Position numbers and translations under genes: made by a program | Shown here: piece by piece, positions 11,412 to 63,899 of the stretch | Layout of the letters: every line of letters starts with the position of its first letter | Position numbering within the stretch: the first letter of the stretch is position 1 | Source: Candidatus Methylacidiphilales bacterium | Lineage (GTDB): Bacteria > Pseudomonadota > Gammaproteobacteria > JASGCS01 | DNA length: 64,000 nt | Assembly: GCA_030054035.1 (NCBI GenBank) | Contig: JASGCS010000001.1 | Coordinates: 342,280 to 406,279, forward strand | Reading direction: 5' to 3' | Notes under the pieces: generated by a model | Databases searched by the model: none | What the model was told of the DNA's origin: nothing | Seen by the model: the letters and a program-made list of their open reading frames with translations, nothing else

Positions 11412-12188
11412 TTGGAAATGAATAACTACATTAAAAACAAGGAAGAAATTGCTTGCATGAGAAGAGTAGGTAAAATGGCAGCTCAGACATTAGAAATGAT
11501 TGGGCAGTATGTAATAGAGGGTGTTAGCACTAATGAACTAAATGACAGATGTCATGACTACATAACAAAAACACTACATGCTATACCGGCACCTTTAAAC
11601 TATAAGGGCTTTCCAAAATCTATTTGCACTTCCATAAATGAAGAAGTGTGCCATGGCATTCCGTCAGAAAAAAAATTGGCCAATGGAGATATTGTAAATT
11701 TAGATGTAACGGTAATCTTTGAAGGTTTCCATGGAGATACAAGTAAAATGTTCACAGTAGGGACTCCAACTAAAAAATCAAAAAAACTAATCGAAGATAC
11801 ATACAAGGCTCTTTGGCTAGGAATAAAAAAAGCTAAACATGGAGCCAGAATAGGTGATATTGGAGATGTAATATCAAGGTACGCAGCTTCTCAAGGATTA
11901 TCAGTAGTTCAGGAATATTGTGGACATGGTATTGGGAGAAAATTCCATGAATATCCAAATGTCTTACACTTTGGCAATGCGGGAGAAGGGGAAATGCTCT
12001 ATGAAGGCATGACAATTACAATAGAGCCAATGTTAAATATTGGCAAAAGAAATGTTATGGTACTTGAAGACGACTGGACAGTGGTTACCAAAGATGGGAC
12101 ACTATCTGCACAATGGGAACATACAATTCTAATTACAAAATCTAAAGCTGAAGTATTAACACTACGTAATGATGAATGTCTCAACTGA
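11412..12188 (+). CDS. map: Methionine aminopeptidase type I
   Basis: 258 aa; metal-ligand motifs (VCHGIP, DIVNLDV, HGIGR, EPM) recognisable. Confidence 0.9.
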   Translation: MEMNNYIKNKEEIACMRRVGKMAAQTLEMIGQYVIEGVSTNELNDRCHDYITKTLHAIPAPLNYKGFPKSICTSINEEVCHGIPSEKKLANGDIVNLDVTVIFEGFHGDTSKMFTVGTPTKKSKKLIEDTYKALWLGIKKAKHGARIGDIGDVISRYAASQGLSVVQEYCGHGIGRKFHEYPNVLHFGNAGEGEMLYEGMTITIEPMLNIGKRNVMVLEDDWTVVTKDGTLSAQWEHTILITKSKAEVLTLRNDECLN

Positions 12189-13317
12189 AATAATTAGTCA
12201 TCTTACGCAACTAATAAAATTATCATCAATCACGCCTGATGACGCAGGCTGTCAACAATACATTGCAGATCAACTTACGAAAAGCGGATACACCTATATT
12301 GATGTTTCTAAAAATGCCGTTACAAACACTTTGTTTTTCAAAGATAAAAATAAACCATTGCTATTATTTGTTGGGCATACTGATGTTGTTCCACCAGGCC
12401 CACTCGAACTTTGGAATTGCGATCCATTCACTCTAACTATTAATGATGATACGCTGTACGGGAGAGGGGTTGCAGATATGAAGGGGAGCGTATCTGTTAT
12501 GATTAAAATTCTCCAACAATTCAATGATTCTGATAAAAATATTGCGTTATTACTTACCAGCGACGAAGAAGGGGATGCAATAGATGGGGTACGTTTTGCG
12601 ATTTCATCATTACTTACTCAGGGGTTTACTATAGAGCTTGCTATTGTTGGAGAGCCGACTGCGAGTTTATCGAGTGGAGATACAATTAAAATTGGAAGAA
12701 GGGGATCTATTAACTCAACAATCATTGTTAAAGGTAAACCTGGCCATGTTGCTTACCCAGATTTAACAATAAATCCAATAATTCTATCAGTAAAGCCATT
12801 GCAGGCTTTATGTGAAATAGTGTTTGATCTTCCTTGTGAGTCTTTTGATTTAACACAACTTCAATGTACTTCAGTGTATGCAGGAAATAAAGGCTTAAGA
12901 AATGTTATACCTGCAACTGCAACAATAGAATTTAATATTAGGTTTTCGCCAGCATATACTGAAGTACAAATTAAGGAAATAATTTCAAGGCATCTTCAAC
13001 CATTTCAAGACATACTTACCACATCATGGACTAGAGCAAGTCTTCCGTATCTAACAACTAACAAAAAAGCCATCTCATTAATTTCTTCAGCAGTTAAAAG
13101 TGTAACTAAAAAAGATCCGATTTTGAGTACTAGTGGCGGTACATCTGATGGTAGATTTCTATCACATGAATTAATTCCTGTAATTGAACTAGGTCCTCCA
13201 AATGCAACAATACACAAACCCAATGAGCAAATACTATTGCGCGATTTAGAATCTTTATATACGTGTTACTACCAAATTGTACAAGCTTATTTTCCAGACT
13301 GCACTAAGGTACCTTGA
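12169..13317 (+). CDS. dapE: Succinyl-diaminopimelate desuccinylase
   Basis: 382 aa M20 peptidase; SITPDDAGCQ and GHTDVVPPGP motifs typical of DapE. Confidence 0.85.
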   Translation: MMNVSTEIISHLTQLIKLSSITPDDAGCQQYIADQLTKSGYTYIDVSKNAVTNTLFFKDKNKPLLLFVGHTDVVPPGPLELWNCDPFTLTINDDTLYGRGVADMKGSVSVMIKILQQFNDSDKNIALLLTSDEEGDAIDGVRFAISSLLTQGFTIELAIVGEPTASLSSGDTIKIGRRGSINSTIIVKGKPGHVAYPDLTINPIILSVKPLQALCEIVFDLPCESFDLTQLQCTSVYAGNKGLRNVIPATATIEFNIRFSPAYTEVQIKEIISRHLQPFQDILTTSWTRASLPYLTTNKKAISLISSAVKSVTKKDPILSTSGGTSDGRFLSHELIPVIELGPPNATIHKPNEQILLRDLESLYTCYYQIVQAYFPDCTKVP

Positions 13318-14768
13318 CCAGTAATAGTAATTACGCGATCACATAACGCAGCCACTATTTTTGGATCATGGGTTATGACAAAATAACTAAGCCTATTTTC
13401 TTTTCTAATTTCTTGTAACAATGAAACTATAGCAAATCCAGCAAAACTATCTAGCGCGCTAGTTGGTTCGTCGAGTATGATAAGGTCCGGATTAGTTAGT
13501 AAGGCACGTGCAATTGCGACTCTTTGTTTTTGCCCACCAGATAGTTCACTTGGGTAACGCGTAATCAGATGCAAAGATAATTCTACCTGTTGAAATATTT
13601 TCGATATTTGATTTTCAATTTCTCTTTCTGAAACTTTAATGGGCTTTTGTTCCAAAGCTTCAAATAAAGATTGATATACTGTTCTTTTAGGGGATAAGTA
13701 AGCATGAGGGTCTTGAAATACGGCTTGAGTAATCATCCGCTCAGATTTTTTATTTTCTGCTCTGCTAATAGACCCCCGGTACTTACAAAGTTCAAGAAGA
13801 CACATAGCAATAGTTGTTTTTCCACTTCCAGATGGACCAACGCACCCTAAAGACTCCCCCCGATAAATTTCAAAAGCAATATCAGTAATTATGTTATGTT
13901 TTGATTTACTAAATAGGCTGTTGTTTGATTTTTTAGTTACAGTTAAATCTGAAACTGTAACTAAAGTCTCGGTACAATCAAATTGTAATTTTGTTTTTTG
14001 TATTGTAAAATCATTTACTGATTTTATTAATTTTTTGGTGTATTGATGTTTAGGATACTGCATAATATCTTTTGGATTAGTTACCTCTACAATTGATCCG
14101 TTATATAAGACCATAGTTTTATCGGCGCAATAATTAGCTAACATGATGTCATGTGTGACAAATATAATTGAAATATTATTTGTCTCACGAAGTTTTTGTA
14201 ATAATTCAATAAATATTTTTTGATTTTCAGAATCTAAAGCGCTAGTTGGTTCATCGGCGAGTAAAAGTAAAGGTTTAGTATGTAATGCGATTGCTATTGC
14301 AACTCGCTGTCTTTCACCTCCAGAAAGCTGATGGGGGTAACTCTGTAATACTCGCTTAGGATTTTTCAAACCAACGGTAAGTAATAAATGAATTAACTCT
14401 TCATGAGTGGCTTTTAAAGGAGATACTTCAGTGAGTTGAGACTGAATCTTCATCAATGGACTTAAACTACTTAAAGGCTCTTGGCCAATTAAATTTATTA
14501 CTTTCCCACGTAACGACTGCAATCGATTTACCGTTGGCGATAAAAATATTTCCTGCTTAATTGCAATCTCACCGATCATGCTCATAGAAGAAGGGATAAG
14601 TCCGAGTAAAGACCGTAATAAAATGGATTTACCTGAGCCAGATTCACCAATAACAGATACCCATTCCTGAGACTGTAATTCAAACGCAATATTTTGTAGA
14701 ATCGGGATTTTGGATTGTTCTACCACCACATTAAGATTTTTAATATTAATTAGATTGTTGTGAGTCAT
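13287..14768 (-). CDS. ABC transporter ATP-binding protein with duplicated ABC domains (YejF-like)
   Basis: Two Walker A motifs (GESGSGKS, GPSGSGKT) and two LSGG signatures (LSGGERQR, LSGGQKQR) in one polypeptide. The start is set at the Met at 14768 rather than the track start at 14807. Confidence 0.8.
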   Translation of the reverse strand: MTHNNLINIKNLNVVVEQSKIPILQNIAFELQSQEWVSVIGESGSGKSILLRSLLGLIPSSMSMIGEIAIKQEIFLSPTVNRLQSLRGKVINLIGQEPLSSLSPLMKIQSQLTEVSPLKATHEELIHLLLTVGLKNPKRVLQSYPHQLSGGERQRVAIAIALHTKPLLLLADEPTSALDSENQKIFIELLQKLRETNNISIIFVTHDIMLANYCADKTMVLYNGSIVEVTNPKDIMQYPKHQYTKKLIKSVNDFTIQKTKLQFDCTETLVTVSDLTVTKKSNNSLFSKSKHNIITDIAFEIYRGESLGCVGPSGSGKTTIAMCLLELCKYRGSISRAENKKSERMITQAVFQDPHAYLSPKRTVYQSLFEALEQKPIKVSEREIENQISKIFQQVELSLHLITRYPSELSGGQKQRVAIARALLTNPDLIILDEPTSALDSFAGFAIVSLLQEIRKENRLSYFVITHDPKIVAALCDRVITITGQGTLVQSGK

Positions 14769-15762
14769 CTTTAAATACATCCCGAATTCCTTCACCAATA
14801 AACACAAATGAAACTAAAAAAATTAATAACACAGTAAACGACGTTGCGCTTAACCACCAAGCATCTATATGCCCTCTGGCTTGATTTAACAACTCACCTA
14901 GACTTGGGTACGAATCACCCACCCCCAAACCCAGAAAATCTAAACTGGTAAGTGCCAATAAAGTTGCTCCAAGCCTAAATGGGAAGAGAGTAATTATAGG
15001 AATCAAAGTATTTGGAAGTATATGTCTCATTATGATTTTGATATGACTAAGACCTAAAGATTTGGCTGCAAGTACATATTCTTTTTGTTTAATTCTTAGA
15101 AACTCTGCTCTGGCATAATCATTAAAACTAATCCAAGAAAAAAGGGAAAGAATTATAAATAAAATCAATAATGATGAATCAAATAATGTGGACGCTAACA
15201 ACAATATATACAGCTCTGGAAGCGCAGACCACACTTCAATGCATCTCTGAATAATTAGATCATACTTACCTCCTGCGTATCCTTGTACAGCACCTAAGAA
15301 TACCCCGATAAGCGCTGATACTATAGTAACTGCTAATGCAAATAATATGTTTAATCTCACACCATATAAAATTCTCGCAAGCACATCCCTCCCTCGATCA
15401 TCAGTTCCAAGAAAGTTTATACTTGATGGTGGTGATGGGAAAGGATTATTATTTAAATTATTTACTGAATTATAAGAAAATTTAATTGGAGGATATATCA
15501 CCCAGTTGCCATTTTGTTGCCAAAGTGACTTTACCTGCTCACTTTGATAATCGATTTCTTTATAATTCAATAAAAACGTACTTGGTTCATAATGAATATA
15601 AACTGGAAAAAATAGAGAGCCTTGATAATAGACTACAATAGGTTTATCATTGCATAGTAATTCGGAAAGTAAACTAAAAAATAATAGTAGTAAAACAATA
15701 ATACTGGCGCCGAGAGCGTATTTATTCTTTCTAAATTTCTGAAATAAATTTTTCCGATCCAT
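14746..15762 (-). CDS. Peptide ABC transporter permease (YejE/OppC-like)
   Basis: 338 aa polytopic membrane protein with long N-terminal periplasmic region; ABC permease EAA-like loop; operon context. Confidence 0.75.
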   Translation of the reverse strand: MDRKNLFQKFRKNKYALGASIIVLLLLFFSLLSELLCNDKPIVVYYQGSLFFPVYIHYEPSTFLLNYKEIDYQSEQVKSLWQQNGNWVIYPPIKFSYNSVNNLNNNPFPSPPSSINFLGTDDRGRDVLARILYGVRLNILFALAVTIVSALIGVFLGAVQGYAGGKYDLIIQRCIEVWSALPELYILLLASTLFDSSLLILFIILSLFSWISFNDYARAEFLRIKQKEYVLAAKSLGLSHIKIIMRHILPNTLIPIITLFPFRLGATLLALTSLDFLGLGVGDSYPSLGELLNQARGHIDAWWLSATSFTVLLIFLVSFVFIGEGIRDVFKDDSQQSN

Positions 15763-15763
15763 T

Positions 15764-16822
15764 TTATTTGTGACTATTAAAATTTATTCTTGGATCGACT
15801 ATTATATACAGAATATCGGTAATAAGCTTTCCCACTAATGCAACGATAGAAAAAAGAAAGATGAGTGCAAGTAGTATGGGATAATCTCTATTAATGGCTG
15901 CCTCATAACCCAACAACCCTAACCCATCAAGTGAGAATATTATTTCAATGAGTAAATTACCAGAAAAAAATGCAAATAAAAATTGAGTTGGAAAACCAGT
16001 TAAAATCGGAATAGATGCATTTGGAAGTAAATGTCTATAAAATACTTTAGACTCTGTTAAACCTTTTGCTCTTGCAATTAAAACATATTGTTTTTCAACT
16101 TCATCTAAAATTGAATTTTTAGTTAACAAAGAAATAAAAGCAAAGCCCGATAACGACAAACATACAATAGGAAGAAAGATATGCCAAAGATAGTCAAGGA
16201 GCTTACCTATCATGGTTAACTCTTCCCAGTTATCTGATGTGATTCCTCTTAAAGGAAATAACGGTAGCGCTCCCCCTCCTCCAAATAACGCAATAAGAGC
16301 AATCGCTAGAATAAATCCCGGAACTGAATACATGATAAGCAATAAAGTTGTGCTAGCGTTGTCGAACACAGATCCAGCACGAATTGCTTTAGAAATTCCT
16401 AAAGGGATTGCAAATAAATAGGTAAGTAAGAAAGTCCACACACCCAAACTAATTGAGACAGGTAGCTTCGTAAGAATCACAGAAGCGACAGAACCCTGTT
16501 GATAATAAGATACTCCAAAATCAAATAAAATTAAATTTTTTACCGTTGCTGCGTAGCGAGTTAATAAAGGTTGATCAAATCCATATATTTTTTTAATGGC
16601 TTCAACTTGTTCTTCACTTATAGTTTGGTATTCAATAACTTTATTTTTAGAAGTTAGTGCGGTAGAAACTTCGCCTGTGGCGTTCAACTTTTGCATTGCT
16701 AGATAATGTTCGACAGGGCCGCCTGGAACAAATTGTATTATCAAAAATGTTATGGATATTACTCCAAACAAAGTTGGAATCATTAATAAAATACGAATTA
16801 CCACATACTTAATTAGTGTCAT
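15764..16822 (-). CDS. Peptide ABC transporter permease (YejB/OppB-like)
   Basis: 352 aa membrane protein; operon context between the binding protein and the second permease. Confidence 0.75.
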   Translation of the reverse strand: MTLIKYVVIRILLMIPTLFGVISITFLIIQFVPGGPVEHYLAMQKLNATGEVSTALTSKNKVIEYQTISEEQVEAIKKIYGFDQPLLTRYAATVKNLILFDFGVSYYQQGSVASVILTKLPVSISLGVWTFLLTYLFAIPLGISKAIRAGSVFDNASTTLLLIMYSVPGFILAIALIALFGGGGALPLFPLRGITSDNWEELTMIGKLLDYLWHIFLPIVCLSLSGFAFISLLTKNSILDEVEKQYVLIARAKGLTESKVFYRHLLPNASIPILTGFPTQFLFAFFSGNLLIEIIFSLDGLGLLGYEAAINRDYPILLALIFLFSIVALVGKLITDILYIIVDPRINFNSHK

Positions 16823-18546
16823 TTCTCAATCCACCAAGTTGTAAGCATCCATTCTAACGCATTATAATATTTAGGTAACACACTAGGATGTTTAAGTGAA
16901 CTGGAATAGGCAACCCGATGATAATTTAAATACCAGTTGGGTACAACCAACCATTGACTCATAAGCACACGATCAAGTAAATTTGTAGATTTTAGAAGTG
17001 CCGAAGAATTATTCGACCTAACCACAATATCGATTAATCTGTCTACAGTCGTATTGCTTATACCGGTATAATTATCCTGACCTTCAATATTTACAGATTT
17101 GGAGTGAAAATAGTTATACAACTCATTACCCGGTCGCTCGCCAGATGGAAAAGTAACTACAAGCATATCATAGTCAAATTTATTTATTTTTTGCTGATAG
17201 AGAGCAAAATCATAAACTTTATATCGAAGCGTTACACCAATAAGTGATAAATAATACGCATAACGGTGAAGTATTCTCTCAAAACCACCTTGCACAAGTG
17301 GTAATTCAATATTCATGCTTTTTACTCCTGCATCTTCCATTAGTCGTAAAGATTCTTTGAGTCTGTTTTCAAAATCTGAAGAAAGTATTTTTTCATAATA
17401 CGCAGAATCATACAATACTTCATTGCCAAATTCATTTTTTATTGATTCTGGGATTTGAATATTTGATTTTGCACCAAATATACTGTTACTAAAATAACTA
17501 GCAGATCTAACATACTGATTATAAAAAAGATGTCGATTTGCCCATTCAAAATCAAATAACAACGCAATTGCTTTTCGGACATTTTTATTTTGAAATTTTA
17601 ATTTTCGTAAATTAAAACTAAACCCTTGCATGCCTGCATTGTTATCATAATGGAACTCTCTAGCAACTAACGAACTTGTGATAAATCCTCCTCGATTATA
17701 TGCGGTAGCCCATCTTTTTGAATTAGATTCACTTATCCAATCAATATCGCCAGATTGTAAGGCTTGTAACGCAATGGTTGGGTCCTTAAAATACTTGAAT
17801 GTAATTTTAGAGAAATTAAACATGCCGTTCCTAACTAGCAATGATCGAGCCCAATAGTTCTCGTTTCTTTTATAAACAATAAATTTACCAAATTGATACT
17901 TATCGACAAGATACGCACCTGAACTAATTGGTTGTTTGTTTGATAATGTGCTCACTACTCCATCAGCAATCCATTGCTTAGAAAAAATAGGTATAGTAGT
18001 CGCTATGATGAATGGTAATTCGGGATTTTTATTACGAAGTATAAATTCGACCGTATGCAAAGCATTTGATTGCACAGCCAAAATATCTTTATAATAATTA
18101 ATGTACCTAGGATGTGATCCTGAAGAGACTAAAATTTTATATGATGCAACCACGTCGTCAGCAGTAATTCTAGAACCATCGCTAAAAGTTGCGTTAGGAT
18201 TAAGTGTAAAAACAACTTTTTTTTCATCTTCACTTATTGAGACAGACTTAGCAATCAGGCCATAAGCTACTAAAGGCTCATCCATGCTTTGAGAAAACAA
18301 GGTATCATAAAGCAAGTAATCAGAAGCCATCGCGCCTTGGTTCTTTAATGCAAACGGGTATAAGCTATCAAAATATCCAATTGCTGGAAGAGAGACTGCG
18401 CCAATAGTATTAATATTCTTTTGAACATAAGAAAATTTTGTATCATTTAATTGGTATTTTGGCGTGCTACTTATTGCTATAAAATAATTAGCAAGTGCAC
18501 TTTGCCAACATACGAAAAGATAGCATAAAAATAATAAATTCTTCAT
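16819..18546 (-). CDS. Periplasmic substrate-binding protein, family 5 (YejA/OppA-like)
   Basis: 575 aa with signal peptide; size and operon position typical of cluster C / family 5 solute-binding proteins. Confidence 0.7.
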   Translation of the reverse strand: MKNLLFLCYLFVCWQSALANYFIAISSTPKYQLNDTKFSYVQKNINTIGAVSLPAIGYFDSLYPFALKNQGAMASDYLLYDTLFSQSMDEPLVAYGLIAKSVSISEDEKKVVFTLNPNATFSDGSRITADDVVASYKILVSSGSHPRYINYYKDILAVQSNALHTVEFILRNKNPELPFIIATTIPIFSKQWIADGVVSTLSNKQPISSGAYLVDKYQFGKFIVYKRNENYWARSLLVRNGMFNFSKITFKYFKDPTIALQALQSGDIDWISESNSKRWATAYNRGGFITSSLVAREFHYDNNAGMQGFSFNLRKLKFQNKNVRKAIALLFDFEWANRHLFYNQYVRSASYFSNSIFGAKSNIQIPESIKNEFGNEVLYDSAYYEKILSSDFENRLKESLRLMEDAGVKSMNIELPLVQGGFERILHRYAYYLSLIGVTLRYKVYDFALYQQKINKFDYDMLVVTFPSGERPGNELYNYFHSKSVNIEGQDNYTGISNTTVDRLIDIVVRSNNSSALLKSTNLLDRVLMSQWLVVPNWYLNYHRVAYSSSLKHPSVLPKYYNALEWMLTTWWIEK

Positions 18547-18570
18547 AATTTATTGGGTATAATAAACATT

Positions 18571-19392
18571 ATGTTACATGATAAAGTAATCGTTATCACA
18601 GGTGTTGCAAATCAAAGATCAATTGCCTACGGAGTAGCTCATGCATGCGCTAGACATGGCGCCACACTTATCGTTGTTATTCAAAGTGAAAGATTCAAAT
18701 CAAGGGCTGAAGAATTAATTCTTCAGTGCGGTAAATATCACAATAAAAAACATACAATTTTTATTTGTGACGCTGCTTATGACGATCAATTACAACAATT
18801 AAGTCTTGACATTGCAAGTATTACAGAACGTATTGATGTATTTGTCCATTCTATCGCATTTGCTAATAGAGATGAAATAAAAGGGGCATTTCATGATGTC
18901 ACAACTAGAAGTGGTTTTCTTCTCGCGCATGATATCAGTTCATACACACTTGTAGCATTTTCAAAATTCTTATTACCCCTATTAAAGAAATCTCAATCAG
19001 CAAGTATAATTACAATGACATACTATGGATCTGAAAAAGTTATACCTAACTACAATGTTATGGGCGTGGCCAAAGCTTCACTTGAGGCTTGCGTTCGATA
19101 TCTTGCAGCATCACTTGGTAGTGATGGGGTACGAGTAAATGCCCTCTCACCAGGTCCAATACAAACATTAGCGGCTTCAGGCATTACCGGACTTAGCAAA
19201 ATGATTCAAGCAACAAAAGAAAACTCACCGTTAAAAAAATCACTTACTATTGAAGATGTCGGTAATGTTGCCGTATTTCTAGCCTCCGATCTTTCTCAAG
19301 CAATTAGTGGTGAAATAATTCATGTTGATAATGGATCGCATTGCATGGGAATCAACATCAAAAATGATGACAATAGATCAGATATTAGTTAG
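18571..19392 (+). CDS. fabI: Enoyl-ACP reductase (NADH)
   Basis: Near-colinear to FabI: ITGVANQRSIAYG, HSIAFA, catalytic Tyr-x6-Lys region NYNVMGVAKASLEA, GVRVNALSPGPIQTLAA. The start is set at the ATG at 18571; the track ORF begins at a TTG at 18553. Confidence 0.85.
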   Translation: MLHDKVIVITGVANQRSIAYGVAHACARHGATLIVVIQSERFKSRAEELILQCGKYHNKKHTIFICDAAYDDQLQQLSLDIASITERIDVFVHSIAFANRDEIKGAFHDVTTRSGFLLAHDISSYTLVAFSKFLLPLLKKSQSASIITMTYYGSEKVIPNYNVMGVAKASLEACVRYLAASLGSDGVRVNALSPGPIQTLAASGITGLSKMIQATKENSPLKKSLTIEDVGNVAVFLASDLSQAISGEIIHVDNGSHCMGINIKNDDNRSDIS

Positions 19393-21394
19393 TATTTAAC
19401 AATTTTTCATACTCGGGCTTTAAAACTACCTCCGCGTTATCACGCAAATAATTCCCAAGGGAATCAATACCAACACTTTGAATTAAGTTTTCAAAAACAG
19501 TTATAGATTGTAAGGTGAAAGCAATCTCAGTCTCATCCTTGGTAGGATCTTTTTTATTTCTCAATTTTTCTAAATAATCTTTAGGGTTTTTAATCGTAAA
19601 AATATCTGAAACCCATTGTTCACTTGGCAGACTTATATCATGGTAGTTATAAATCAAAACATCACCTTGTGGTAGGGCAAATTTATAATACTTTGATTTA
19701 TCTCCTTTGGCATTAAGTTGGTAAAGTACATTAAAAAAATCATCTGGTAATTGTAATTGAGGATTGAGTCGATACACAGCAATATCACCAATTTTAATAA
19801 TATTACTACTTAGTATATTTTCAATAATTTTAATTTCTACAGATGGTTGATTTATTTTACTCAGCTTTTCGTCTGCAAGTTTAGATGCGGCTAAAGTAGC
19901 TTTTTCATATTTCCAAGCGACAATTACTTCATTTTTAACCATATCTAATTTAGGAATATACGACGGTGAATAATTATTTATTTGATAAACCATTACCGAA
20001 TCATCAGATAAGGTTACAATTTCACTCATGCCTTGAGGGTTCGTTTTTGCTAAATTAAAAGCCTGTTTTCTTAAAATGTTGTTAGTGAAATGACCGTCCC
20101 CTTTGCTGTAATCCATAGAATTAGTTTTTAATAGATTGCCATTAAATGAAGATGCGATGATTTCTAGATTTTGAGATGTCTTTTGTAGCATTTTTTGTAA
20201 TAAATCTAATTTTTCAGCATAGATATTGCTTTTCCGTTCATCAATCAAAGATAATAAAATTTGTTGTCTCATTTCATCTAGTGGAGCTACTTGCCCATTT
20301 TTAATATTTTCTAAATAAATTAAATGATAACCAAATTGCGACTTTATCACATTACTTATTGGATTTTGTAAAGTTAAAGAGAAAAGTGATTTTTCAAAAT
20401 CAGGATCTGTGTCGCCTTTACCAAGCCAACCAAGATCGCCGCCCATATTTTTAGTTGCGATATCTTCAGATATAGTAGCTGCTATTTTGTTAAATTCAGC
20501 TAACGAATTAGTATTCTTTTTTATGGATTGTAATTTATTAATAACTTCCTCTTCGTTTTTCTCGCTTTTAGGTAAGGTTAATAAAATATGAGCTGCTTTT
20601 CGTTTTTGCACAAGTTCTTGATTGGCAAAATTTATTTTATAAAATTCTTTGATTTCTTCTTCGCTGGGCATTTGAACATTTTTTGTAAGTTCGTCTTTAT
20701 TTAGCACCACATACTTAACATCAAGCGATTCTTTTGTTTTAAATTTTTCAGAATATTTTAAATAGTAATCTTGCAATTCTTTTTCAGAAGGTTCGACATC
20801 AGCAATTAAATTTTTTGCAGAAATAAAGTATAAGGTTGTGTTTCTTTTTTCATTTAATAATTTAATTAAATGTTTAATTTCCCAATTGTTTGGTAATTCT
20901 GATTTGGTTAAAGTTTTTGTAATTTGTTCTTTTTTTATTAAATTTTTATATCGGTTAACAAAAGATTCAATCGTTAGCCCACTTTCAATAATAAAACTGT
21001 TAAATTTTGCATAATCAAATTTTCCATCTGTTTGAAAGTTAGGTATTTTCTCAACTGACTCTTTTAAGTATTCATCGGTAATGTTCATATTAAATTTATC
21101 TGCGGCAAACTCAAATAATAATTTATCCATTAACCCTGCCAACGCTAAGGACTCAAGTTTTTTAGGGTCTTGTAATTCATCAGGAATTTTACCTTGATTG
21201 TTTGAAATAACTTGGGACAATATTTCAGACTGGGTTTCTTTTAAATCAGATAAAGTGATTTTTTTGCCGTTTATTTTTCCAATAATACCCTCTTGAAAGT
21301 TATAGTCAAAATAACCATAAACCCCCCAAAAAGTAAAAGGAATTAATACTATTGTAATTACAAAAATTGAGAAAAATTTTTTCCAGCGTTCCAT
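19385..21394 (-). CDS. ppiD: Periplasmic chaperone / parvulin-type peptidyl-prolyl isomerase PpiD
   Basis: 669 aa, N-terminal membrane anchor, central parvulin-like segment (GGDLGW…FGYHLIYL). Confidence 0.75.
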   Translation of the reverse strand: MERWKKFFSIFVITIVLIPFTFWGVYGYFDYNFQEGIIGKINGKKITLSDLKETQSEILSQVISNNQGKIPDELQDPKKLESLALAGLMDKLLFEFAADKFNMNITDEYLKESVEKIPNFQTDGKFDYAKFNSFIIESGLTIESFVNRYKNLIKKEQITKTLTKSELPNNWEIKHLIKLLNEKRNTTLYFISAKNLIADVEPSEKELQDYYLKYSEKFKTKESLDVKYVVLNKDELTKNVQMPSEEEIKEFYKINFANQELVQKRKAAHILLTLPKSEKNEEEVINKLQSIKKNTNSLAEFNKIAATISEDIATKNMGGDLGWLGKGDTDPDFEKSLFSLTLQNPISNVIKSQFGYHLIYLENIKNGQVAPLDEMRQQILLSLIDERKSNIYAEKLDLLQKMLQKTSQNLEIIASSFNGNLLKTNSMDYSKGDGHFTNNILRKQAFNLAKTNPQGMSEIVTLSDDSVMVYQINNYSPSYIPKLDMVKNEVIVAWKYEKATLAASKLADEKLSKINQPSVEIKIIENILSSNIIKIGDIAVYRLNPQLQLPDDFFNVLYQLNAKGDKSKYYKFALPQGDVLIYNYHDISLPSEQWVSDIFTIKNPKDYLEKLRNKKDPTKDETEIAFTLQSITVFENLIQSVGIDSLGNYLRDNAEVVLKPEYEKLLNTN

Positions 21395-21425
21395 AGTGAT
21401 TTATATTTTACATTAAAATAATCAA

Positions 21426-22057
21426 GTGAATAATCAAATTATAGCTAATACAATCATTGAAGGGAACTACGCCCCTCTCATCAAAGACAATGTAGACACT
21501 GATCAAATTATACCATCTTCGGAAATGAAACTACCCTCTAAACGAGGTCTAGGTATAGGTTTATTTGCAAATCAAAGATACAACAACACTATCACACGTG
21601 ATCCAAATCCCCTTTTTATCCTTAATCAACCTAATTTTCAAGAAATAACTATTTTGGTGTCAGGGTTGAATTTTGGTTGCGGCTCATCAAGGGAGCATGC
21701 AGTATGGGCATTAAAATTTATTTTTCCAAAAACAGTGCTTATTATCTGAAGATCAATGTCTATGGAGATTCTATTTTTACCTACTGTATTGCAAATCTCA
21801 TTCTCCCAATCATTGTTTCGAAAGATGTCGTTTTGCTGTTTTCTGAAAATACAGTAGGTAAAAATAGAATCTCCATAGACATTGATCTTCAGATAATAAG
21901 CACTGTTTTTGGAAAAATAAATTTTAATATAGAAAAAGAAGTGAAAAATAAATTTATTCTGGGTGAAGATTCGATATCAAGTCTCCTCAATAATTTTACA
22001 AGCACCATTGATGAGCATGAAAGAAAAAATAAAATAACTAAACCTTGGTTATTCTAA
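21426..22057 (+). pseudogene. leuD: 3-isopropylmalate dehydratase small subunit, frameshifted
   Basis: ORF 21426..21749 carries the LeuD N-terminal part (DNVDTDQIIP…NFGCGSSREHAVWAL); ORF 21677..22057 in another frame continues with LeuD middle and C-terminus (GIKIY…, ISIDIDLQ…, ILGEDSISSLL…DEHER…KPW). The frame switches around 21705-21720. No leuC adjacent. Confidence 0.7.
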
Positions 22058-22067
22058 TTTCAAGATG

Positions 22068-22144
22068 TGGCGGAGTGGACGGGGCTCGAACCCGCGACCC
22101 CCGGCGTGACAGGCCGGTATTCTAACCAACTGAACTACCACTCC
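22068..22144 (-). tRNA. tRNA-Asp (anticodon GUC)
   Basis: Reverse complement GGAGTGGTAGTTCAGTTGGTTAGAATACCGGCCTGTCACGCCGGGGGTCGCGGGTTCGAGCCCCGTCCACTCCGCCA; cloverleaf and anticodon loop CTGTCAC read by eye. Confidence 0.9.
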
Positions 22145-22148
22145 ATCT

Positions 22149-22223
22149 TGGTGGGTACTGTGGGATTCGAACCTACGACCCCCGCCTTGTAAGGGCGATG
22201 CTCTACCGCTGAGCTAAGCACCC
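22149..22223 (-). tRNA. tRNA-Val (anticodon UAC)
   Basis: Reverse complement GGGTGCTTAGCTCAGCGGTAGAGCATCGCCCTTACAAGGCGGGGGTCGTAGGTTCGAATCCCACAGTACCCACCA; close to enterobacterial tRNA-Val(UAC). Confidence 0.85.
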
Positions 22224-22258: not shown

Positions 22259-24682
22259 TTATTGACTTGTATGGAGATTAGAAAAGGTAGAATTTTCATT
22301 TCTATAGTCAGCAGCCTTATTTGTAAGTATCTTGATTTTTTTACCTTCAGTATTAAACAAATGGATAAAAGAGTCCTCGAACCATTGAAGCGGAATAATA
22401 TCAAGTCCTGATTTTATATCATCTGGAATATCTTCAAGCTGATGGGCGTTTTCCGCAGGAATAAGAACTTTTTTAATCTTTGCCCGTTGCGCAGCAAGTA
22501 GCTTTTCACGTAATCCACCTATAGGCAAAATTGATCCTCGTAAAGTTACTTCACCTGTCATAGCCACATCTGAGTATACAGGAATATTTAAAACTGCAGA
22601 GAAAAGCGCAACAGTCATCCCTAAGCCAGCTGATGGACCATCTTTTGGAATTGCACCCTCTGGTACATGGACATGGAAATCATGTTCATTAAAATAATGC
22701 AGTGGGATAGTCTTATCAAAATCATGGATATGTCTTTTAATTATTGTGAGGGCGGTATCTATGGATTCTTTCATAACATTTCCTAATGAACCGGTATATC
22801 GAGTACCACCTCTGCCAAATATTGTTGTCGCTTCAATATGAAGAATATCACCGCCAAACTCCGTCCATGCTAAGCCTGTGACTTGACCAATAATTGAATT
22901 TGGTTTATCAAATTGATACCTATATTTTCTAACACCTAAATATTTTTTAACATCTGATTTTAATAATGTTTTTTTAATTTTATCTTTAAGTTCATCACGC
23001 AAAGATACATCGTTCTGGTGTTCAAAAACATGCTTCCTAGAAATTTTGGCAATTGATCGTTCTAATTGTCGAACACCTGATTCCCTCGTGTAGAACTGTA
23101 TAATCTCATATATGACCTCTTGATGAAGCTCTAGTTCGTTAGCTTGAATTCCATGTAGTTTTTGCTGCTTTGGAATTAAATGGTTATTTGCGATATGAAA
23201 TTTTTCGTGGTCACTATATCCATACAAGTGAATAATCTCCAAACGATCAAGTAGTGGCTTTGGCATATCAAGAGTGTTTGCGGTAGTGATAAAAAGTACT
23301 TCGGAAAGATCGAAAGAAACCTCAGTATAATGATCTACAAACTGTGAATTTTGTTCTGGATCCAACACTTCAAGCAATGCAGATGCTGGATCTCCTCTAA
23401 AATCACTTCCCATCTTATCAATTTCATCAATAAGTATAACTGGATTTTTTACTTTTACTTTTATTAAATTTTGAATAATTCTTCCTGGCATTGAACCTAT
23501 ATAAGTTCTTCTGTGCCCTCGAATTTCTGACTCGTCTCTAACGCCTCCTACCGAAAACTTGATAAATTCCCTGTTTGTTGCCAGTGCGATCGACCTAGCA
23601 AGAGATGTTTTTCCAACTCCTGGAGGACCAACAAAGCATAATATGGATCCTGCAGTTTTATTAGTCCGTTTTTGAACAGCGAGATATTCAAGCACTCTGG
23701 TTTTTAATTCAACTAATGCATAATGCTCACTGTCTAAAATTCTTTTTGCTTTATTCAAATCATTCGATAACTTAGATCTTAATTGCCATGGAAGTTGAAT
23801 AAGATGATGGAGGTACGTCTTTACGACTGAGGCTTCTGGGGACGAGGCTGAAAATGTTTTAAGTCGAGCTAATTCTTTCCTTGCTTTGTCTGACGCTTCT
23901 ACTGACATTTTAGAATCAATAATTTGTTGTTCCAAATCTGTAAAATCTTTACTTTCTTGATACTCATCACTTAGCTCTTTTTGCAATGCCCTAATTTGCT
24001 CATGAATAAAATAATCTTTTTGATTTTTTTCAATTTGGCTAAATATTTTATGTTTAATTTTTTGATCTAAAAGCAATGAGTCGACAGTATTTTTTAATAA
24101 ATCTAATATCATTTCGTACTGCTCTTGAATTGTTTCTATTGAAAGTAGCTCTTGCTTTTGCGAAACATCAACATCAAGTTTAGCTGACACTGTGTTAAGT
24201 AAAACCTCATCGCTATCAATAGACTCCAGCTGGGTTATCAATTGATCATTATTAGCATTTGGAATAATTGTCAATAGATTTTGTAAACTTATTAACAACT
24301 CTCCTCTTTGTGCATCAGTCAGAATTGATCCTGAATCGTGGTGTTTAAATTGACGAGCATTAACATTAAGATAACCAAAATCATACAAATCCTCAATTAG
24401 CATTCTATAATGCCCTTCCAATGTCACTCGATAAGTACCTGTTCCAGACTTAATTACTTTAATTATTGTAGCTAACACACCAACGACATAAATTTCTTCA
24501 AATTGTGGTAACTCAGTTTCTGGATCGGTCTGAAGGCTTACAATTATTGGTCTGTTATCACGCTGTGACTCAAAAATTGATTTTACCGACCTTTCTCTGC
24601 CAACAATTATATCTATAGTTGTATTTGGGAAAAGCACAACGTCTCGCAAGGGTAAATACGGAATATGCAAATAATCAGACAT
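22259..24682 (-). CDS. lon: ATP-dependent protease Lon
   Basis: 807 aa; Walker A GPPGVGKTS, C-terminal protease domain with catalytic Ser (PKDGPSAG); follows clpX. Confidence 0.9.
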   Translation of the reverse strand: MSDYLHIPYLPLRDVVLFPNTTIDIIVGRERSVKSIFESQRDNRPIIVSLQTDPETELPQFEEIYVVGVLATIIKVIKSGTGTYRVTLEGHYRMLIEDLYDFGYLNVNARQFKHHDSGSILTDAQRGELLISLQNLLTIIPNANNDQLITQLESIDSDEVLLNTVSAKLDVDVSQKQELLSIETIQEQYEMILDLLKNTVDSLLLDQKIKHKIFSQIEKNQKDYFIHEQIRALQKELSDEYQESKDFTDLEQQIIDSKMSVEASDKARKELARLKTFSASSPEASVVKTYLHHLIQLPWQLRSKLSNDLNKAKRILDSEHYALVELKTRVLEYLAVQKRTNKTAGSILCFVGPPGVGKTSLARSIALATNREFIKFSVGGVRDESEIRGHRRTYIGSMPGRIIQNLIKVKVKNPVILIDEIDKMGSDFRGDPASALLEVLDPEQNSQFVDHYTEVSFDLSEVLFITTANTLDMPKPLLDRLEIIHLYGYSDHEKFHIANNHLIPKQQKLHGIQANELELHQEVIYEIIQFYTRESGVRQLERSIAKISRKHVFEHQNDVSLRDELKDKIKKTLLKSDVKKYLGVRKYRYQFDKPNSIIGQVTGLAWTEFGGDILHIEATTIFGRGGTRYTGSLGNVMKESIDTALTIIKRHIHDFDKTIPLHYFNEHDFHVHVPEGAIPKDGPSAGLGMTVALFSAVLNIPVYSDVAMTGEVTLRGSILPIGGLREKLLAAQRAKIKKVLIPAENAHQLEDIPDDIKSGLDIIPLQWFEDSFIHLFNTEGKKIKILTNKAADYRNENSTFSNLHTSQ

Positions 24683-26019: not shown

Positions 26020-26643
26020 TTATACCGAACCTGCGTCGCCAGAAGCAACTCTAGTGCTCAAAACCTTATCGACAATACCATACGCACAAGCCTCAGTACT
26101 GTTAAGAAAATAATCTCTGTCAGTATCTTGTTCAATTTTTTGAAGAGGTTGTTCAGTATGCTCAGCCAATATAGTATTCAGCACAGCTTTTATTTTAATA
26201 ATTTCTTGGGCATGAATACTAATATCAGAAGCTTGGCCTTGAAAGCCTCCCAAGGGTTGATGGATCATTATTCTGGAATTGGGTAAAGCAAATCTTTTCC
26301 CTTTTTTACCTGACGCTAAAAGCAAAGCTCCCATACTTGCAGCCTGACCAATACATAGTGTGCTGATATCAGGTGAAATAAATTTCATAGTATCATATAT
26401 ACACATACCCGCAGACACCGATCCACCTGGAGAGTTTATATAGAGATAGATATCTTTTTTTGGATTTTCTGATTCCAAAAAAAGCATCTGGGCTACAACT
26501 ACATTCGCAACATAATCATCAATAGGCCCTACTAAAAAAATTAAACGCTCACGTAACAATCTAGAGTAGATATCAAATGCCCTTTCACCTCGTGAGGATT
26601 GCTCTACGACAATTGGAACATACTGTGAAAAAGTTTTATTCAT
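26020..26643 (-). CDS. clpP: ATP-dependent Clp protease proteolytic subunit
   Basis: 207 aa; catalytic Ser region GQAASMGA, His region IMIHQPLGG. Confidence 0.9.
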
Positions 26644-27686
26644 TTATTATTAGTATCTATGAGATCACTTAATTTAACTGGTTTACTGACTATCTTAACT
26701 CTATTAAATATATGGTCTACAAATTCTATTTCAAGGGCAATAGTAAAAAAGTAATTTCTCCAATAATCATTCTGCACTAATTGCCTTATGGCTTTTTCAG
26801 GATCTTGGGTGCTTTGTGCAGTTTGAGATATTAATTTTTTAATAACTTCTTGTTTTGGAATGATGTTAAAATTATTTACTATATGTTTCAAAATCCAGTC
26901 TGACTTTAATCGTTTCTCAATTAAAGTTTTAGTAAAGGAATCCAGTTCAACATGCTTATCACATGGCTCTTCGGCTTTATGAGTATGACCTGCTTTTTCA
27001 TGTAATTCATGTCCTAAACGACGCTCTTCAGTTGTTATTGCTTTAGCTAAGATTGAAGGAGGTAGTGAAAATTGAAATTCGTTAAGTAAAGCTTCAAGAA
27101 TTGATTCTTTATTTTTCTGAAACAATTTAAATTCGACTTCTTGGAGTAACGTTTGCTTAATTGCTAAATCAAATTTTTGCTCGGCGTCATCACCAATAAA
27201 GCCCAATTTTTCAAATGCTATTTGACTTTGATCATTACCATGTTCTTTAATAACTTTTTCTTTCATTGAAGTAAAATCGCTTTGATTTATTGAGTACTCA
27301 AACTTGGTAATTTCTAAGCTTTCTAATGAAAGTAAATTAATTTCGGGTGAAAGTTCATAAAAATAATCTATGCTTAAAATTTTATTTTTTATATCTAGTT
27401 TTGGATTATACATCGGCTGAGTTGCAAGAACAATGTTTTTATTTGAAGCCAAATAATCGCTCCAACATCGTAAGGAAATATCTTTAATTGCTTGATCTTG
27501 TAAGGTTTCGGTATATTTCTTTAGTAATATTTCATCTGGAACTTTACCTTTTCTAAAACCATCAATCGCAACTGTTTGTTTCAAATGGACTAGCTGTTTT
27601 TGCATAGATTTATCAAACTCTTCCCAAGAAACAGAAAATACTACTTCTCTCTCTAGTTGCGATATTTCTTTAACTTCATAACTCAT
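26640..27686 (-). CDS. tig: Trigger factor, apparently lacking the central PPIase domain
   Basis: N-terminal ribosome-binding signature GFRKGKVP present; 348 aa versus about 430 aa in typical bacteria; tig-clpP-clpX-lon synteny. Confidence 0.8.
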
Positions 27687-47428: not shown

Positions 47429-48955
47429 ATGGTACATTCATTTTCAACAAAAATACCGGCAATTTATGTCGGTATTAATCGTAGTTTTCCCGCCAATGGT
47501 TGTCTAGTTGCGCTTATTAGAGAAGATGCGATTATTGATGAAAAAAGTTACGACTACAATACAAGGCAATGTATTAAGACTACATTACATATGGGCGATA
47601 TGCCAAAGGGATTCGCCATAACTCATACTACCCCACTCTTAATACCTAGAAATATCAAGCAGAAAAGGATTGTGATGGTGCAATTAACAAAACAATCTAT
47701 TTCAAGCTATTTTAAACTTATTGATCTAAGTCATAAAATCGCAAAAGCAATTATTAATACAAATGCAAAACATGTGATTTTGAATTCTGGAATTATTTTA
47801 CAGGAATATAACAAATATTCTTTAGATAAAAATGAAAATGAAATTCAAGAATCCGATGTGATTTCAATATTTTTAAGAGAATTGCTTCTTCAACAACTTT
47901 TTTCTAAAAATAAATCAATAGAATCGATAAATTTTATTGTAAGTGCTATAAAAAAAGAACATTCCTCAGTAATTGCAAACACTGTAGCAATTTCAAGAGC
48001 AATGCATTGGTCAATTGAATTATCAAATTTACCAAGCAATAAATGCACCCCAAAAATCCTTGCCCAAGAAGCTAAAAAGATATGCTCTCAATTCACTAAT
48101 CTAACGTTAACTATCCATAGTACAAACTCTATAAATAAATTGAACATGGGAGGTGTATTGGCGATATCAAAAGGTTCTGTGAATGCTCCATATTTTATTG
48201 AAGTGTCTTACAAACCAAAAAAATCAACCTCTAAAAAACCCATTGTATTAGTTGGAAAAGGAGTTACATTTGACAGTGGTGGAATTTCATTAAAGCCTTC
48301 TAAACAAATGGACGAAATGAAATATGACATGTGTGGCGCCTCTACAACGCTTGCTACAATCTTTGCATGTGCATACGCTAAATTACCTATACATGTACAG
48401 GTACTAGTTCCAGTTGTTGAAAATATGCCAAGTGGCTCCAGTATAAAACCTGGAGACGTAATCACAACACATTCTGGTAAAACAATTGAAATACTAAACA
48501 CCGACGCTGAGGGGAGAGTAATTCTTGCGGATATGCTTAGTTACGCTGAAAATTTTAAACCAAGATTTCTCATTGATGTTGCTACTTTAACTGGAGCATG
48601 TATAACTGCGCTAGGTAGAGATTTTTGTGCGGTAATCAGTAATCAGCAAGAATTAGCCGATACGCTAATTCAATCCGGACGAAAAGCATTTGATTGCTGC
48701 TGGCAATTACCACTTCATGAGCCTTATCGTGAATCATTGCACAGTAACTTTGCTTCTATTGCAAATATTGGAAATGGCGAGGCTGGAACAATTATTGGTG
48801 CAGTATTTTTAAAAGATTTTGTCAATCCTAAAACTCCTTGGGCACATCTTGATATCGCTAGTGTTGCATGGAAATCTGGTATAACAAAGAGCGCTACTGG
48901 TAGACCTATTCCATTACTTTATGCCTTTATACAATCCAAACTTGATTACAACTAA
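47429..48955 (+). CDS. pepA: Leucyl aminopeptidase (M17)
   Basis: 508 aa; M17 signature NTDAEGRVILAD and metal-ligand region VGKGVTFDSGG. Confidence 0.9.
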   Translation: MVHSFSTKIPAIYVGINRSFPANGCLVALIREDAIIDEKSYDYNTRQCIKTTLHMGDMPKGFAITHTTPLLIPRNIKQKRIVMVQLTKQSISSYFKLIDLSHKIAKAIINTNAKHVILNSGIILQEYNKYSLDKNENEIQESDVISIFLRELLLQQLFSKNKSIESINFIVSAIKKEHSSVIANTVAISRAMHWSIELSNLPSNKCTPKILAQEAKKICSQFTNLTLTIHSTNSINKLNMGGVLAISKGSVNAPYFIEVSYKPKKSTSKKPIVLVGKGVTFDSGGISLKPSKQMDEMKYDMCGASTTLATIFACAYAKLPIHVQVLVPVVENMPSGSSIKPGDVITTHSGKTIEILNTDAEGRVILADMLSYAENFKPRFLIDVATLTGACITALGRDFCAVISNQQELADTLIQSGRKAFDCCWQLPLHEPYRESLHSNFASIANIGNGEAGTIIGAVFLKDFVNPKTPWAHLDIASVAWKSGITKSATGRPIPLLYAFIQSKLDYN

Positions 48956-62019: not shown

Positions 62020-63097
62020 TTTTGTCAATTAAACTCTTAAATTCATTAAAAATATATTTAAAATCATGGGGGCCTGGATTGGCTTCAGGGTGACCTTGGA
62101 TAGCTATTAAAGGGGCTGTAGCTGAAACAAATCCTTGCAATGAGCCATCAAACAAAGATCTGTGAGTTGCAATTAGCGATGATGTGAGGGTTGTCTCCAG
62201 AATCTCAAAACTATGATTTTGACTCGAAATTACACTTTGGTGAGTTCTTAAATCTAAAATTGGATGGTTAATACCGTGATGTCCATATTTCATTTTTTTT
62301 GATTTAGCTCCTAATGCAAGTGCAATAATCTGAAAACCCAAACAAATTCCAAGCAAGGGTAATTTATGCGAGACACAATAATGCACTATAGGATGAACAT
62401 AGTTACATGGTTCTGGGTCCCCGGGTCCGTTTGATAAAACTACCCCAACTGGATCATTGCTAAGCAATTCATCTAATGTTGTTTTTGCAGGAAAACAAAC
62501 TACTTTGAATCCGAGAGTTGCTAAAAAATGTAATATTGATTTTTTGACCCCCAAATCTATAACAGCAATAATTTTTTTATTCGTAGACTCAGGGTTAAAA
62601 TAATATTTTTCCTTAGTTGTTACTTGAGAAGCTAAATCTAAACCTGATAATCCTTTATAATTCCTTAACGCATCATACGCGTCGTCTAAATCAGAATTAG
62701 TACGACAGTCCAAGCAAGCTCTTAAAGAACCATGAGTTTTAATTAATTTAACTAAAAATCTGGTATCTACGCCTTCTACAGCTGGAATGGAATTCTTGAT
62801 AAGAAAAGAGGATAGGCTCGTTAAACATCTCCAACTACTAGGTTGATATGTGTACTTGTGTACCAACAAGCCGCTATTATGAATTATATTTGATTCATTA
62901 TCTTCTAAATTAATACCTGTATTACCAATATGGGGATAAGAAAATACAATGAACTGGCCCTTATATGATGGGTCAGTGCAAACCTCTTGATACCCGCTCA
63001 TAGCTGTATTAAACACTAATTCACCTAGAGCCATCACGGGAGCACCAAAGCTGATGCACTCTATGATAATATTCTGATCAATGATTAATTTTGCCAT
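62003..63097 (-). CDS. carA: Carbamoyl-phosphate synthase small subunit (glutamine amidotransferase)
   Basis: GATase class I catalytic triad context (GICLGFQ, HPE); N-terminus aligns from Met 63097 (MAKLIIDQ…[13 protein letters not shown]); track start is 63118. Confidence 0.9.
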
Positions 63098-63899
63098 TGT
63101 ATTGTGGGTAAAACTCATCTATCCAGTTTAATATTTGTTTGCAATTTTCGAATCTATCATCTGGATTTTTAGCTATACATAATTGCAGAAAATTATCAAA
63201 CGGTGATTGGACATCTATAAATTTGTCATCACTATTAATGAGCTTAGTTTTTAATACTTCTTCTATTGTAAGATCGTTAAATAATTTTTTACCGGTAAAT
63301 ATTTCATAAAAGACGCAACCCAAACTATATATATCAGTACGCTCGTCATAACATTGCAATAAAGCTATCTGTTCAGGGGCAAGATAACTAGGAGTTCCAA
63401 TAACAGTACCTGGTTTGGAACGTAGTTTTATATTATCTCTTTCAATTGAAATTCCAAAGTCAAACAAACAAAGTGATCCATCTTCACGCAAGCCAATATT
63501 TGTTGGATTTAAATCTAAGTGTAAAATACCCCTTTCATGAATGTAATTTAATGCCGTGACAAGTTGGATCAAATAAATAATTGGATCATACTTAACCTGA
63601 TTAAAATGTAAGAAATTTTTCAGATCCCCTTTTGCTAGATACTCTGTAACCAAAAATATAACGCTTTTAGTCACTCCATAATCATACAGCTTTACTATAT
63701 TGCTGTGTTCTAGTAAAATCAACATTTGGACTTCATGAAACAAACGACCCTGATCATTTCTAGTATTAGGTAATTCATCTCTCTCAACACATTTAATTGC
63801 AATTTGAAGTGAGTCTGAATTTCTAGTGCCTAGAAAAATATTTCCATGTGAACGATTGGGCAGTAGTCCAGATGTGGTGTAACCAGGTATCTTTAACAT
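63078..63899 (-). CDS. Eukaryotic-like (Hanks-type) Ser/Thr protein kinase, kinase domain only, atypical catalytic loop
   Basis: 273 aa; subdomains in order: IAIKC (II Lys), HEVQ (alphaC Glu), HLDLNPTN (catalytic loop), DFG, GTPSYLAPE, DIYSLGCVFYEI; no TM, PASTA or FHA modules. Confidence 0.7.
   Translation of the reverse strand: MLKIPGYTTSGLLPNRSHGNIFLGTRNSDSLQIAIKCVERDELPNTRNDQGRLFHEVQMLILLEHSNIVKLYDYGVTKSVIFLVTEYLAKGDLKNFLHFNQVKYDPIIYLIQLVTALNYIHERGILHLDLNPTNIGLREDGSLCLFDFGISIERDNIKLRSKPGTVIGTPSYLAPEQIALLQCYDERTDIYSLGCVFYEIFTGKKLFNDLTIEEVLKTKLINSDDKFIDVQSPFDNFLQLCIAKNPDDRFENCKQILNWIDEFYPQYNGKINH

Follow-up and report, generated by a model that had tools for sequence, protein, structure and literature searches.

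A leuD gene split by an inverted copy of its own downstream sequence in a metagenome-assembled genome and intact in matching Logan contigs

The 64,000-nt stretch of DNA analysed here (the window) contains two overlapping ORFs, in different frames of the plus strand, that resemble LeuD and lie between ppiD and a tRNA-Asp/tRNA-Val pair. Both the ORF coordinates and this position, as given in a first-pass annotation of the window, agree with the ORF list and the gene coordinates:

19385-21394, minus strand: ppiD, on one side of leuD
21426-21749, plus strand: LeuD-like ORF1, 107 aa
21677-22057, plus strand: LeuD-like ORF2, 126 aa, overlapping ORF1 in another frame
22068-22144, minus strand: tRNA-Asp, between leuD and lon
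22149-22223, minus strand: tRNA-Val, between leuD and lon
22259-24682, minus strand: lon, beyond the tRNA pair, followed by clpX, clpP and the trigger-factor gene

The identity of the two ORFs as LeuD, also proposed in the first-pass annotation, was borne out by profile searches. ORF1 matches positions 5-91 of the 202 in LeuD profile NF002458 (E = 1e-30) as well as Pfam Aconitase_C (E = 8e-16), and residues 29-125 of ORF2 match positions 103-200 of NF002458 (E = 5e-9). Taken alone, each ORF falls below the curated cut-offs, with 106.7 bits (NF002458) and 90.9 bits (TIGR00171) for ORF1 and 36 and 19.4 bits, respectively, for ORF2. The two ORFs (P0002 and P0003 in the protein search) correspond to the ‘hypothetical proteins’ QM538_01825 and QM538_01830 of the NCBI entry ‘MAG: Methylacidiphilales bacterium’, encoded on a MAG contig of 476,275 nt. 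The start codons of ppiD and leuD are divergent and 31 nt apart (21395-21425), which leaves no room for a leuD promoter that does not extend into the 5′ end of ppiD; consensus-level −35/−10 matches are found beside the leuD start at 21380-21407 and 21407-21434. No terminator-like site was found between the leuD stop and the convergent tRNA-Asp 10 nt downstream, and Rfam identified only the tRNAs at the leuD locus and no other known RNA element.

Searches of the 64 kb by tblastn returned no LeuC-like sequence (two LeuC-like queries, best E = 2.6) and no HMGL/LeuA-like sequence, in agreement with the earlier observation that neither leuC nor leuA is adjacent, and leuD therefore looks orphaned, judged locally within the window. 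An orphan LeuD lacking a neighbouring LeuC poses a small puzzle for the leucine metabolism of the organism. Of the LeuD relatives with an examined gene context, the two nearest (P0004 and P0005, the latter from an alphaproteobacterial MAG) are 44-45% identical by BLASTP and up to 51% over the alignment, and both are encoded directly downstream of an Aconitase-family large-subunit (leuC-like) gene, whereas the window leuD has no adjoining LeuC-like gene and is placed instead between ppiD and the tRNA-Asp/tRNA-Val pair. At both of these loci (L003:4553-8880 and L004:4574-7563) an HMG-CoA-lyase-like gene lies just downstream of the LeuC-like/LeuD-like pair, and a family-III CoA-transferase gene is found in the neighbourhood. 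The context of these nearest homologues, which is not that of a leuABCD operon, suggests that they may form a catabolic paralogue clade. The intact leuD resembles the surrounding genes in composition (GC 32.2% against 34.1 ± 2.1%, GC3 27.1% against 23.0 ± 1.8%), which argues that it is not a recent import.

The tblastn search of the 64 kb also found no HupB-like sequence, confirming the earlier remark that hupB is missing from its slot between lon and ppiD. GTDB representative genomes yielded only a Hoeflea LeuD of 43% identity and hence no near relative with which synteny could be compared. The single relative retrieved, in SRR25758461, has a 58% identical Lon; there, lon is directly followed by tRNA-Val (L007:5761-5825), and the contig ends in this tRNA-Val, before any position that leuD might occupy. 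Because lon of the relative is likewise directly followed by tRNA-Val, the loss of hupB from the slot predates the organism and is not tied to leuD.

Apart from this relative, no Lon match exceeds 49% identity, and the named sequences among the best matches are from Gamma- and Alphaproteobacteria. The gene orders tig-clpP-clpX-lon ... ppiD and lepA-lepB-rnc-era-recO are likewise of the proteobacterial type. Given these Lon matches and gene orders, the NCBI label ‘Methylacidiphilales bacterium’ (Verrucomicrobiota) looks doubtful; the lineage is very divergent. The window has 33% GC and tightly packed genes. Its trigger factor (26640-27686, minus strand) is 348 aa long and comprises Trigger_N and Trigger_C with no PPIase domain, and that of the relative with the 58% identical Lon is similarly short (316 aa; L007:447-1397). 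Just upstream of fabI-ppiD-leuD, the region 11412-18546 encodes M24 and M20 peptidases and a complete peptide ABC importer (a substrate-binding protein, two permeases and a fused double ATPase), and a leucyl aminopeptidase (M17) is encoded at 47429-48955. The importer and peptidases are consistent with amino-acid scavenging, and together with the GC content, the gene packing and the short trigger factor they are compatible with, though not proof of, a reduced and possibly host-associated lifestyle. At 63078-63899 (minus strand), adjoining carA/carB in a region that is otherwise compact and of housekeeping character, lies a gene for a protein of 273 aa that carries a Ser/Thr protein kinase domain of eukaryotic type (PF00069); the gene could be effector-like.

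The protein search also retrieved an intact LeuD of 206 aa (P0001) from the Logan assembly of run SRR23378604. This intact allele is present on two Logan contigs, of which the SRR23378604 contig runs unbroken through leuD, while the only record of the broken ORFs is that of the NCBI MAG, and the broken ORF1 protein was not found in the contig index. The Logan contig with the intact leuD carries a PpiD identical to that of the window, and no mismatches were found in 10,291 nt to the left of the lesion described below (window 11426-21716) or in 322 nt to its right (21783-22104). Altogether, 58,217 of the 64,000 bases of the window are represented in Logan contigs from SRR23378604 and SRR23378605, and over these bases the lesion is the only difference, with no SNP or indel besides it. 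Proteins of the organism are recorded only in these two adjacent runs and in the MAG, and in JGI metagenome contigs the leuD sequence immediately before the junction had no exact match. Since the SRR23378604 contig passes leuD unbroken, the junction k-mers of the inverted allele are apparently rare there, if they occur at all.

The intact allele reaches 190.7 bits with NF002458 (cut-off 167) and 154.3 bits with TIGR00171 (cut-off 116.25), and keeps all 49 columns that are invariant among 14 homologues. Its length is canonical and, when the LeuD swivel-domain motifs (DTDxIIP, GCGSSREHA and SFxxIFxxN) were checked, DNVDTDQIIP and NFGCGSSREHAVWAL were present. The closest solved structure is 2hcu_A (E = 8e-38). 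By these sequence measures the intact allele encodes a genuine LeuD of the bacterial type.

Comparison of the two alleles shows that a single segment differs. In the window, 66 nt at 21717-21782 stand where the intact allele has 55 nt, GATTTTGGAATTAAGTGTATAATCGCAATTTCCTTCGGTAGAATATTCTATGAAA; base for base, the 66-nt segment is the reverse complement of 21856-21921, which lies further downstream in leuD. The net change is +11 nt, which accounts for the frameshift. The first-pass annotation had placed the frame change near 21705-21720 in a stretch rich in A/T homopolymers; the position holds, with the frame shifting at 21716/21717, but a homopolymer indel is not the cause. It had also taken the two ORFs to rebuild a complete LeuD, which they do not, since residues 98-116 of the true protein (DFGIKCIIAISFGRIFYEN) are missing. 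The lost 55 nt encode this part of the conserved LeuD core and with it seven of the 49 invariant columns (G100, A106, S108, F109, I112, F113 and N116), so that the SFxxIFxxN block is gone from the window allele; the 55 nt do not occur anywhere in the 64-kb window. The peptide GIKIY, previously read as the LeuD GIK motif, is a coincidence: it comes from the WALK codons in another frame and resembles the true FGIKCII motif. The parts of the window allele are as follows:

21426-21716, plus strand: 5′ part of leuD, ancestral, codons 1-97, through ...GCGSSREHAVWALK; 100% identical to the intact Logan allele
21710-21716, plus strand: junction 1 microhomology ATTAAAA, with its reverse complement TTTTAAT at 21922-21928; outer end of the repeat, present in both alleles
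21717-21782, plus strand: lesion, the 66-nt inverted copy, from allele comparison
21783-21790, plus strand: junction 2 microhomology ACTGTATT, with its reverse complement AATACAGT at 21848-21855; inner end of the repeat, present in both alleles
21710-21790, unstranded: left arm of the inverted repeat, derived, from the repeat search
21791-21847, plus strand: spacer of 57 nt, ancestral leuD in its original orientation, encoding ANLILPIIVSKDVVLLFSE; identical to the intact allele
21848-21928, unstranded: right arm, ancestral leuD (NTVGKNRISIDIDLQIISTVFGKINFN), including the donor 21856-21921; identical to the intact allele
21783-22057, plus strand: 3′ part of leuD, ancestral, starting within codon N116 and ending at the stop; 100% identical to the intact allele

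The sequence across junction 1 reads GGGCATTAAAA before the break and TTTATTTTTCC after it, and that across junction 2 reads TTTTTACCT before and ACTGTATTGCAAATC after. Together with the flanking microhomologies, the inverted copy and its donor form a perfect 81-nt inverted repeat (arms 21710-21790 and 21848-21928, 57-nt spacer), the left arm of which starts exactly at the reading-frame break; around it, identical peptides appear on both strands in the ORF list. The window holds no other inverted repeat of at least 24 nt (within 2 kb). As a single strand, the region folds into an 81-bp stem of −88.5 kcal/mol (z = −23 relative to shuffled sequences), whereas the fold of the intact allele is nothing unusual (z = +0.8). 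Inverted microhomologies of at least 7 nt occur in 1.8e-4 of the position pairs in leuD and those of at least 8 nt in 8e-5, and two junctions with 7 and 8 nt of microhomology are not due to chance. Alignment of the ancestral 55 nt with the inserted 66 nt gave a score of −3, compared with a mean of −7.8 ± 3.6 for shuffled sequences, 13% of which scored at least as well.

As read from the two alleles, the lesion is most probably the product of one polymerase template-switch event comprising two switches, and the inverted microhomologies at both junctions would be the signature of a polymerase that switched template twice. In the proposed sequence of steps, a nascent minus strand, copying from high to low coordinates, would reach 21783, where its 3′ end AATACAGT could snap back and pair with ACTGTATT, the complement that it had synthesised 57 nt before, opposite 21848-21855. 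The nascent strand would then copy 66 nt of itself before realigning on the original template via TTTTAAT/ATTAAAA at 21710-21716. The outcome would be the replacement of 55 nt of leuD by a 66-nt inverted copy, with a frameshift and a new 81-nt perfect inverted repeat. GC skew and gene orientation point to fork movement from high to low coordinates, and this inferred direction suggests that in a replicating cell the snap-back would be a leading-strand event.

Such a switch is somewhat more likely to have been made in vitro, by a polymerase used for amplification or library preparation, and we put the probability that the lesion is an in-vitro or assembly chimera at slightly better than one half (about 0.55); the broken gene would then not be the predominant genotype of the organism. 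This is supported by the distribution of the two alleles, the intact one on two Logan contigs and the broken ORFs in the NCBI MAG only, and by the 58,217 bases devoid of any other difference, as expected if the MAG and the Logan contigs share reads, with the organism's proteins confined to two adjacent runs and the MAG. Diverged sub-populations would be expected to differ by point mutations, which are far commoner than complex events. An intact protein that passes the LeuD cut-offs with every invariant column kept points the same way, as do an insert that exactly reverse-complements 21856-21921 and junction microhomologies of 7 and 8 nt. Among chimeras formed in vitro, the dominant type joins nearby sequences in inverted orientation at short microhomologies. 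In multiple displacement amplification (MDA), 85% of the chimeras are of the inverted kind; they arise within one molecule, preferentially between nearby segments, at complementary stretches of 2-21 bp (PMC1855051). Against a chimera stands the fact that such molecules usually carry one junction, whereas the leuD lesion has two coordinated junctions 66 nt apart. It is also the sole structure of its kind in 64 kb, with no sign of a chimera-rich assembly, and systematic chimeric assembly was rejected as a candidate on finding no second inverted repeat of at least 24 nt there. Moreover, an assembler could not have created the junctions from 7-8 nt of microhomology, and there must be reads that contain them. 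Chimeric molecules may nevertheless have been favoured by the MAG assembler: the inverted path shares internal k-mers with the true downstream copy and would therefore look better covered than the intact path. We infer that an assembler could possibly prefer the inverted path even from a minority of molecules, real or chimeric. No mention of the run accession was found in the indexed papers.

Alternatively, the lesion could be a real and very recent double template switch at a replication fork in vivo that inactivated a dispensable, orphan leuD, a reading to which we give rather less than an even chance. Short-range template switches of 62-125 bp have been documented, the longest in complex sequence being 90 bp, and two junctions that return to the original strand are the classical pattern of replication template switching in vivo (PMC9435742). 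Template switching at inverted sequences is also an established, strand-biased class of bacterial mutation that is well studied in E. coli (PMC7202029). The geometry of the leuD lesion fits the four-point model and its size lies within the documented range, both junctions return to the original strand as in one coherent event, and the inferred fork direction makes the snap-back a leading-strand one. That the window holds a single long inverted repeat is also in keeping with an event in the cell. With no leuC-like partner within 64 kb, loss of leuD may be neutral, and the nearby peptide ABC importer and peptidases fit amino-acid scavenging. The main argument against an in-vivo origin is the lack of any SNP or indel between MAG and Logan contigs in 58 kb, since a point mutation would be a far more probable difference; in addition, the Logan assemblies give the intact allele, leaving the inverted allele at most a minority in SRR23378604. 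Long perfect inverted repeats with a short spacer are potentially unstable in vivo, and the one in leuD has 81-bp arms and a 57-nt spacer. An allele of in-vivo origin would segregate with the intact allele in a near-clonal population or dominate the sub-sample from which the MAG derives, an arrangement that we regard as possible but doubtful. That a 66-nt switch in the cell made an 81-bp perfect hairpin de novo, starting from no prior quasipalindrome, and so disabled the orphan leuD is put forward with similar reserve.

The first-pass annotation had offered two other explanations, the first being a decaying leucine-biosynthesis gene. An old, decaying leuD pseudogene in a host-dependent bacterium would be in line with the splitting of the gene into two ORFs of which neither reaches the LeuD cut-offs, with the lack of leuC or leuA nearby, and with an AT-rich, compact genome that has a domain-depleted trigger factor. 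Outside the 66-nt lesion, however, all bases are identical to those of an allele that scores above the curated thresholds, and no further stops, indels or substitutions are found, with 49 of the 49 invariant columns retained. The 100% identity of 10.6 kb of flanking sequence excludes another organism as the source of the Logan allele. An intact 206-aa allele that passes the cut-offs and shows no other difference over 58.2 kb leaves no time for decay, and the idea of an old pseudogene is highly improbable. The same population contains the undamaged version in DNA that is otherwise identical, and the break in leuD is therefore either of very recent date or an artefact of the laboratory or the assembly, and not the result of slow decay.

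The second explanation, a single-base homopolymer sequencing error in an intact gene, drew on the change of frame beside short A/T runs at 21712-21726, and its probability is now negligible. The alleles differ by 66 versus 55 unrelated nucleotides and not by one base, a one-base frame shift made anywhere would leave about 22 codons of non-LeuD sequence, and the MAG consensus is otherwise error-free over 58 kb. What may survive of this proposal is that an intact gene has been misrepresented, although by another mechanism. Equally improbable is a programmed DNA inversion or phase-variation switch, to which a perfect inverted repeat flanking a short segment inside a gene might point, since both alleles carry the spacer in one and the same orientation, the intact allele lacks the repeat, so that the difference between them lies in an arm and not in the spacer, and the neighbouring genes are ppiD and tRNA genes, with no recombinase gene adjacent. 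A site-specific invertible element was rejected as a candidate on the same two features, the uninverted spacer and a repeat that has no counterpart in the intact allele.

These results call for caution with genes such as QM538_01825/QM538_01830, which read as a decaying biosynthetic gene and could be counted as genome reduction, yet have an undamaged counterpart in the same population. One complex lesion accounts for the damage, and a homopolymer-error model could never repair it. Pseudogene counts and inferences of auxotrophy from MAGs are sensitive to lesions of this kind, and the leuD ‘pseudogene’ of this MAG should not be counted as decay on the strength of the assembly alone. If reads bear the allele out, it would represent a clean, natural and large bacterial template switch that produced a long perfect hairpin in one step. 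Were the event to have taken place in the cell, it would be a rare natural example in bacteria of a large short-range template switch for which ancestral and derived alleles are both in hand, and the first step of gene loss or pseudogenisation would have been caught in an otherwise invariant population.

Both the LeuD family and the class of template-switch lesions are already known. The intact allele is like the LeuD proteins of NF002458/TIGR00171 and Pfam PF00694 (Aconitase_C) in score, length and motifs, and the window copy differs from canonical LeuD in lacking residues 98-116. Chimeras made by MDA and other strand-displacing polymerases (PMC1855051, PMC9484634) resemble the leuD lesion in being intramolecular, inverted joins of proximal sequence at a short complementary stretch; the typical MDA chimera, however, has a single junction with an intervening deletion, whereas leuD has a second junction, at which the sequence comes back to the original strand. 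The quasipalindrome mutations of E. coli (Ripley model; lacZ QP reporters of the Lovett laboratory, PMC7202029) likewise involve intramolecular snap-back, copying and realignment. These events perfect an existing imperfect palindrome, usually by a few bases, whereas leuD had only the terminal microhomologies of 7-8 nt. A quasipalindrome ‘correction’ at leuD was considered and rejected, as the ancestral 55 nt are no likelier than shuffled sequences (13%) to match the inserted copy and the intact fold has z = +0.8.

The four-point model of Löytynoja and Goldman (PMC9435742, PMC7954356, PMC8794818) likewise describes a local segment replaced by the reverse complement of nearby sequence, with two switch points, the rest unchanged and a perfect hairpin made in one step. 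The size of the leuD lesion is within the range reported for such events (up to 90-125 bp), its 66 nt lying at the large end. Four-point events are known from eukaryotic genomes, with support from inheritance or populations, whereas the leuD event is known from assembled sequence. The features by which four-point events are recognised are nonetheless found in leuD, namely an exact reverse complement of nearby sequence between unchanged flanks and microhomology at the switch points, here of 7 nt and 8 nt.
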